Source: Escherichia coli O127:H6 str. E2348/69
GTDB taxonomy: Bacteria; Pseudomonadota; Gammaproteobacteria; Enterobacterales; Enterobacteriaceae
Direction: 5' to 3' (one strand)
DNA length: 64,000 bases
NCBI RefSeq assembly: GCF_000026545.1
Contig: NC_011603.1
Of the stretch, positions 63,001 through 64,000 are shown one piece after another. The first letter of the stretch is position 1. Every line of letters begins with the position of its first letter. The position numbers are program-made.

Positions 63001-64000
63001 AACTTTGGCGAGCTCTGGCTGAACAGGGATAAACTCCCCGGGATTATCAATAGCTCTGCGGAGACGTTCAGCATGTATCTGGAGCAGCAGATAGAATCGC
63101 TTATTGTCTGGCAGATCCCGAATACCTACATCATTGAATTCCGGGGCAAACCACTGGAACAACACTCATTGGGTCAACGCGCATCCGCATTAATGCTGTT
63201 TGTCCTGAATCAGCAGGACAATGATGTGGTGATCATCGATCAACCCGAAGACGACCTGGACAATCAGACGATTTATGACGACGTGATTAAAATCATCAGG
63301 GCGATGAAACCCCGCACGCAATTTATCTTTGCCACTCACAATGCCAATATTCCGGTGCTCGGAGATGCAGAAAATGTCTGTGCCTGTGAATATTCAGACG
63401 GAAAGATCCAGATTGTCGGCGGAGGCGTGGATGCCCCTCTTGTACAACAGCACATTATTTCGGTAATGGAAGGAGGGCGGGAAGCCTTCGAGCGACGCAG
63501 GGAAGTTTACGGCTCATGGCTCAGTAAAACCTGATACCATCATGCTTACTGAGCATACAGAAAAAGCCGCAAATGCGGCTTTTTAATTTTCTGATTATAC
63601 CTTTTTTGGTTCTTCGATGGAAAAGAAAGAAATTACACAGGCCTGACATATCCATATGCCAGACATCTTCACATTCAAAGCATATGCATATACTGAGCAT
63701 AGCCATACAGGCCGCCCGGTCAGGGGGAAATAATGAGAACTGTATCCATTTTTAAAAACGGCAATAACCGCGCCATCCATCTGCCCCGCGATTTGGATTT
63801 TGAGCGGGTGAGAGAGCTGGAGATCGTCCGCGAAGGAGACAGCATCATCCTGCGTCCCGTCCAGCCGAACTGGGGCTCATTCGCGCAGCTCGAAAAAGCC
63901 GATCCGGATTTTATGGCGGAGCGCGAGAATGTTGTCAGCGACGAAGGTCGATTTGACCTGTGAACAAAACGTATATGCTCGACACCTGTATCTGCTCGTT

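Follow-up and report, generated by a model that had tools for sequence, protein, structure and literature searches.

A probably decayed vagCD-type vapBC operon, with vapB intact and vapC a pseudogene, on an EPEC EAF-type IncFIB/FIA plasmid

Results

Gene arrangement at the 3' end of the window

The sequence analysed here, referred to as the window, is a stretch of 64,000 nucleotides from Escherichia coli O127:H6 str. E2348/69. Its 3' portion carries parM, a gene for a ParA-like ATPase, an RHH gene, a resD-like integrase gene, ccdB, ccdA and a TrlF-family gene, followed by vapB and the first codons of vapC (Table 1). Positions 57700-64000 matched plasmid pMAR2 (NZ_CP059841.1) with 0 mismatches (6.3 kb, 100% identical). 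pMAR2 and pMAR7, for which complete sequence records are published, represent the EAF (EPEC adherence-factor) plasmid of EPEC E2348/69, of the IncFIB/FIA type. Over the longer span 40000-64000 (24 kb), only pMAR2 and pMAR7 matched, with 94% coverage in 4 pieces at 99.7-99.8% identity; differences in insertion-sequence content may account for the incomplete coverage. The last 501 nt of the window were 100% identical to many E. coli IncF plasmids. Beyond the window, pMAR2 continues with a tnpB fragment, tacT/tacA, repFIB and then the bfp operon, and the region is the maintenance and replication backbone of an IncF plasmid.

Table 1 Features at the 3' end of the window, in window coordinates.
Feature	Position	Strand	Remarks
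ccdB	59674-59979	-	Pfam PF01845 positions 1-101/101, E=3.2e-32; intact in RefSeq
ccdA	59981-60199	-	Pfam PF07362 positions 1-71/71, E=2e-25; intact in RefSeq
TrlF-family gene, PHP + SMC/ABC-like ATPase	60913-63534	+	873 aa
Terminator-like hairpin	63561-63584	+	arms AAAAAGCCGCA/TGCGGCTTTTT; 10-bp stem, then T run
CATATGC-type palindromes and repeats	63636-63694	.	candidate vapB promoter/operator
Shine-Dalgarno-like AGGGGGA	63722-63728	+	4 nt before vapB ATG
vapB (vagC-type), AbrB/MazE-fold antitoxin	63733-63963	+	76 aa; intact; protein = WP_001261274.1
vapC start (vagD-type PIN toxin)	63960-64000	+	13 codons; GTG overlapping vapB stop (GTGA, 63960-63963)

The ccdA and ccdB genes lie in an operon and encode full-length CcdA and CcdB domains, in agreement with the earlier note on this DNA, which had placed ccdAB upstream of the locus. 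Between ccdA and the TrlF-family gene, the 713 nt at 60200-60912 are without an annotated gene in pMAR2 and contain short ORFs only. The 873-aa protein, which the earlier note had called a PHP-ATPase, scored 540.7 bits against the NCBIfam TrlF model NF045780 (cut-off 350). It fell far short of Ppl membership (NF042955, 159.8 bits against a cut-off of 1000), its PADLOC Ppl match was partial (122.7 bits), and it bore a partial likeness to PDC-M49A as well. Its similarity to Ppl being only partial, the gene of the TrlF-family ATPase is at most a candidate defence gene. The family takes its name from trlF of the TRL operon of Photorhabdus (trlG-trlF-trlR), where trlG and trlR accompany it; no trlG or trlR partner was noted beside the gene described here.

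The terminator that had been proposed between the PHP-ATPase gene and vapB is represented by a hairpin with a T run, which begins 27 nt past the stop codon of the 873-aa gene and separates that gene from vapB. A repeat search recovered the hairpin as an inverted repeat with 11-nt arms that are 100% complementary.

The vapB antitoxin gene and its upstream region

An antitoxin gene had been expected to follow the PHP-ATPase gene, and the 76-aa ORF found there passed both Pfam and NCBIfam thresholds. The predicted protein matched, far beyond chance, both MazE_antitoxin (PF04014; E=3.7e-7, 30.4 bits, cut-off 24.7) and TA_anti_VapB (NF040493; E=5.8e-26, 90.5 bits, cut-off 60), and aligned with the Salmonella VapB structure 6IFM_B over residues 3-66. 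It therefore has both the N-terminal AbrB/MazE/SpoVT domain and the VapB-family sequence of the antitoxin in a VapBC module. Its identity to VapB from five intact modules is 83-89%. In pMAR2 the gene occupies 76402-76632.

Start calls for this gene are inconsistent in RefSeq, with proteins of 76 aa (WP_001261274.1), 60 aa (WP_369700577.1) and 62 aa (WP_045173883.1); the shorter calls would drop the first 14-16 residues, where the AbrB-type domain begins. The 76-aa call looks right, because a Shine-Dalgarno sequence precedes it and the NF040493 alignment begins at residue 4. An opposite-strand pseudogene annotated as a "hypothetical protein" (pMAR2 76392-76493) overlaps the start of vapB.

Conservation with intact vapBC loci extends over approximately 95 nt ahead of vapB and takes in GCAT.TGCATATACTGA.CATAG. 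Within the candidate promoter/operator are a pair of arms (63648-63659 / 63680-63691), a palindrome (63679-63694) and a -10-like TATACT (63689-63694). An imperfect 17-nt tandem direct repeat, CACAGGCCTGACATATC / CATATGCCAGACATCTT (71% identical), lies at 63636-63669 and overlaps the palindromes. Units resembling CATCTGCATATGC are also found upstream of intact vapBC loci, and such units may be operator half-sites. A promoter scan returned no + strand sigma-70 site at threshold upstream of vapB; its single minus-strand match, at 63623..63594, was at chance level (1 found vs 0.6 expected). Work by Winther and Gerdes in 2012 on enteric vapBC is said to have shown that VapB dimers bind palindromic operators via the AbrB-type domain, with VapC as co-repressor.

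Two lesions in vapC

A toxin gene begins directly downstream of vapB, with overlapping stop and start codons as in VapBC modules. The reading from the GTG at 63960 to the window end, VNKTYMLDTCICS, is identical over its 13 residues to the N-terminus of the intact 138-aa VapC of Klebsiella pneumoniae pF127_1, which confirmed that the start of a PIN toxin follows VapB. These 13 codons are all of the approximately 138 that fall inside the window, and the rest of vapC was read from identical sequences elsewhere. Because 57700-64000 matches pMAR2 without a mismatch, the continuation can be read from that plasmid with high confidence; a source variant with other downstream sequence is formally possible, the window being identical to pMAR2 only in part.

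In the RefSeq annotation of pMAR2, vapC (76629-76951) is flagged 'frameshifted; incomplete; missing C-terminus', and the PLSDB gene table for the plasmid lists vapB and omits vapC. To map the lesions, the pMAR2 locus was aligned, as DNA and by tblastn, with intact vapBC from pF127_1 (87% DNA identity). Codons 1-30 of pMAR2 vapC are in the start frame, with 27/30 residues identical to pF127_1, and are followed by a -1 frameshift near pMAR2 position 76718; codons 36-108 are in the other frame, with 63/73 residues identical. The 3' part of the gene is reduced from 93 nt in the intact gene to 28 nt in pMAR2. The 65 bp lost, near pMAR2 position 76952, lay between CCGGG[CT]C repeats, and codons 109-130 (HAIAAGAVLVTNNTREFERVPG) went with them.

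Residues 5-136 of the intact VapC homologue matched the structures of tRNA(fMet)-specific VapC 9H6A, 6IFC and 3TND (E ~1e-27 to 1e-28), and structure alignment equated its PIN acidic residues D8, E46, D103 and E124 with D7, E42, D98 and E119 of the Shigella protein. Only D8 is in frame from the start in pMAR2: E46 and D103 lie past the frameshift, and E124 (=E119) is lost together with the conserved TNNTREFE segment, which lies inside the deleted stretch. The pMAR2 sequence thus lacks the set of four acidic active-site residues that characterises a VapBC toxin, and an uninterrupted PIN ORF of ~132-142 aa was absent from pMAR2 and from all relatives examined. An active PIN nuclease is not expected, because E124 is deleted and most of the PIN domain is out of frame.

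The two lesions sum to -66 nt, so that a 116-aa ORF still runs uninterrupted between the start and stop codons of the original gene. It consists of 30 authentic VapC residues, ~77 residues out of frame and 9 authentic C-terminal residues (GLKLENWVN).

Distribution of the lesions among related plasmids

A PLSDB search with an 817-nt block (vapB, the vapC remnant and the adjoining tnpB fragment) returned 99 records at a coverage of at least 80% of the query, the best 60 of which were ungapped at 99.5-100% identity and carried both vapC lesions. Among RefSeq complete E. coli sequences, 113 records matched at 99% or more; the other long matches were intact modules at 80-90% identity, with no matches between 90% and 99%. 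Intact vagCD modules were present in 192 E. coli RefSeq records. Base-by-base comparison found both vapC lesions in 14/14 further loci, including Shigella pMO17_54, where a UvrD-helicase-domain gene lies upstream of vapB at the TrlF position, and a plasmid in which ISEc23, of the IS66 family, separates vapB from the TrlF gene. The exact VapB protein occurs in 7,942 blocks of an assembly collection, and 10/10 of the distinct contexts listed for it are without a PIN gene and have the same spacing to the next gene. The lineage is nearly clonal (99.3-100%). A sequencing artefact is an unlikely cause of the lesions, since they occur in many separate sequence records.

A PLSDB query with a vapBC repaired in silico (frameshift fixed, 65 bp restored) found no intact parent; the best full-length intact matches were 87-88% identical. 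The timing of the decay is consequently not bracketed by a close intact relative, there being no full-length match above 88%.

Downstream neighbours

An IS605-family tnpB fragment on the minus strand of pMAR2 lies between the vapC remnant and tacT, and corresponds to TnpB residues 292-325 and 356-395 in two frames. A GNAT toxin gene, tacT, and its TacA antitoxin gene (176 aa + 89 aa, minus strand) lie approximately 240 nt past the vapC remnant and are annotated as intact. In the lineage, vapB, dead vapC, dead tnpB, tacT/tacA and repFIB stay together as one block. It is tacAT, and not vapBC, that forms the third toxin-antitoxin locus here.

Substitutions in vapB and the vapC remnant

With five intact outgroups, the orphan branch carried 4 synonymous and 6 nonsynonymous unique changes in vapB (ratio 0.46) and 8 synonymous and 9 nonsynonymous changes in the frame-corrected vapC remnant (ratio 0.38), counts (10 and 17 changes, in a near-clonal lineage) that are too small to have power to separate vapB from vapC. 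Ratios on control branches were 0-0.31 for vapB and 0.07-0.47 for vapC. Pairwise dN/dS against pF127_1 was 0.117 for vapB and 0.14 for the frame-corrected vapC. These pairwise values show no more than that inactivation came after most of the divergence, the decay being recent.

Discussion

The results indicate, with a probability of approximately 0.92, that the locus is a decayed vagCD-type vapBC type II operon of an EPEC EAF-type IncFIB/FIA plasmid, in which vapB is intact and vapC is a pseudogene. The lesions themselves lie past the window end and are assigned to the locus because its last 6.3 kb overlap pMAR2 at 100% identity and because the lineage is uniform. Public records (RefSeq) already annotate vapB and a vapC pseudogene, and decay of this kind is common. 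In the literature library searched, no paper combined pMAR7 with toxin-antitoxin; intact vagCD modules have been described on other IncF plasmids (PMC4398462, PMC4707298).

The earlier note had proposed a working second vapBC addiction module and had named a truncated or inactive vapC as the finding that would speak against it. Read past the window end in pMAR2, vapC proved to be just that, and it is a pseudogene both in this plasmid, which is identical over the last 6.3 kb, and in all close relatives examined. A complete, functional module with the toxin intact beyond the window end is therefore very improbable. Such a module would be in keeping with the intact vapB, with a 4-nt GTGA overlap and a 13-codon vapC start that match those of intact modules exactly, and with the frequency of intact vagCD on IncF plasmids, seen in the RefSeq counts above and in the same two papers. 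Against it stand the presence of both lesions in every match of at least 99% to the terminal 501 nt whose continuation was examined, the annotation of vapC as a pseudogene in pMAR2, and the lack in PLSDB of any intact allele closer than ~88%. Slightly less credible still is the idea that the ORFs of the vapC remnant (116 aa from the GTG, or 91 aa from an internal GTG) give rise to a new functional protein, or that programmed frameshifting restores the frame. The 116-aa ORF is open from start to stop because the lesions sum to -66 nt, the 91-aa ORF is sometimes called by gene callers, and one GenBank record names the region VagD. However, D8 and E124 are both missing from the 91-aa ORF, a core PIN strand is lost to the 65-bp deletion in any frame, and substitutions accumulate within the lineage at 313, 346, 429, 460, 564 and 569. 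The 116-aa ORF was rejected as a real protein, given the out-of-frame reading of its middle 77 residues and the deletion of the PIN core.

A further proposal concerns vapB alone, and would add a function on top of decay rather than replace decay as the explanation. Selection may keep the orphan VapB as an anti-addiction, cross-neutralising factor against the VapC of ~87%-related vapBC modules, which are common on plasmids of Klebsiella, Enterobacter and E. coli; it would then shield the host or this plasmid upon loss of such a competitor, as has been proposed for orphan antitoxins elsewhere (PMC10790755, PMC7354431). An intact antitoxin ORF without a functional cognate toxin, as an orphan antitoxin is defined, is what was found here. 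In the loci examined, neither the ORF nor its Shine-Dalgarno sequence nor the conserved upstream block is disrupted, the exact VapB is found in 7,942 blocks of the assembly collection, and residues 47-76, which bind the toxin in family structures, differ from the intact-module consensus only at D66N. The orphan-branch ratios, however, do not point to stronger protection of vapB than of the dead toxin gene. Replacements in the orphan VapB also fall at positions that are invariant in five intact homologues (R16H, G25R, S27R, T46N and D66N), and further vapB changes are seen in p2EC1-3 (C152T) and CP062843 (T19G), which from the reading frame would be A51V and F7V. In a lineage so close to clonal, retention may simply mean that the decay is recent and that vapB hitch-hikes with the neighbouring repFIB and tacAT. 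We consider selection for such a role unlikely, though distinctly less so than an intact module or a new protein, and a trans-antidote role of VapB as judged from its sequence is possible but unsupported.

If the locus is the decayed operon described above, no tRNA(fMet)-cleaving toxin would be made, and post-segregational killing by the locus would not occur. Transcription of vapB probably continues from its own upstream region, with weak autoregulation, because the ~95 nt upstream are conserved with intact loci. From what is known of the family, the N-terminal AbrB-type domain of VapB would bind the CATATGC-type palindromes there, though with VapC no longer available as co-repressor the locus would be repressed less strongly than an intact module. 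Host proteases would degrade VapB. In this region, plasmid maintenance would depend on ccdAB, tacAT, the partition genes and the resD-like recombinase. The "defence and addiction island" of the earlier note survives only loosely: addiction applies to ccdAB and to tacAT, which is annotated as intact, and not to vapBC, and the TrlF-family neighbour is at most a candidate defence gene.

A toxin-antitoxin pair cut by a window edge should not be counted as an addiction module before the toxin has been read to its stop, and typing by vagC/vapB alone would score the pMAR2-type lineage as a vagCD carrier. If the trans-antidote reading is true, the host of a pMAR2-type plasmid could lose a competitor carrying a ~87%-related vapBC without being killed. 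This reading would provide a concrete plasmid case for the anti-addiction idea, and is the only one that adds anything new.

Orphan antitoxins and anti-addiction modules, such as chromosomal ccd against F ccd (PMC10790755, PMC7192599), also have an intact antitoxin without a working cognate toxin, and, as here, the antitoxin is closely related to the toxins' modules on competing plasmids. Unlike in those systems, the toxin remnant still adjoins vapB in the present locus, and there is no signal of selection or of cross-neutralisation. The enteric VapBC systems (Shigella MvpAT and Salmonella LT2 VapBC) have a tRNA(fMet)-specific PIN endonuclease, with structures 3TND, 6IFC/6IFM and 9H6A; compared with these, the locus falls on a more remote branch of the family, scoring under the NCBIfam equivalog cut-offs, and its toxin is dead in the lineage. 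The closest likeness in layout described here is to the VagC/VagD plasmid-stability modules found on the virulence plasmid of Salmonella Dublin as well as on IncF, IncR and Klebsiella plasmids, which have the same succession of vapB, 4-nt overlap and vapC. Unlike VagD, the vapC described here is frameshifted and lacks 65 bp including E124, so that no toxin would result. Compared with the WP_001261282.1 / WP_001044770.1 pair of pF127_1, VapB is 89% identical as protein and the locus 87% identical as DNA, and the upstream block is common to both.
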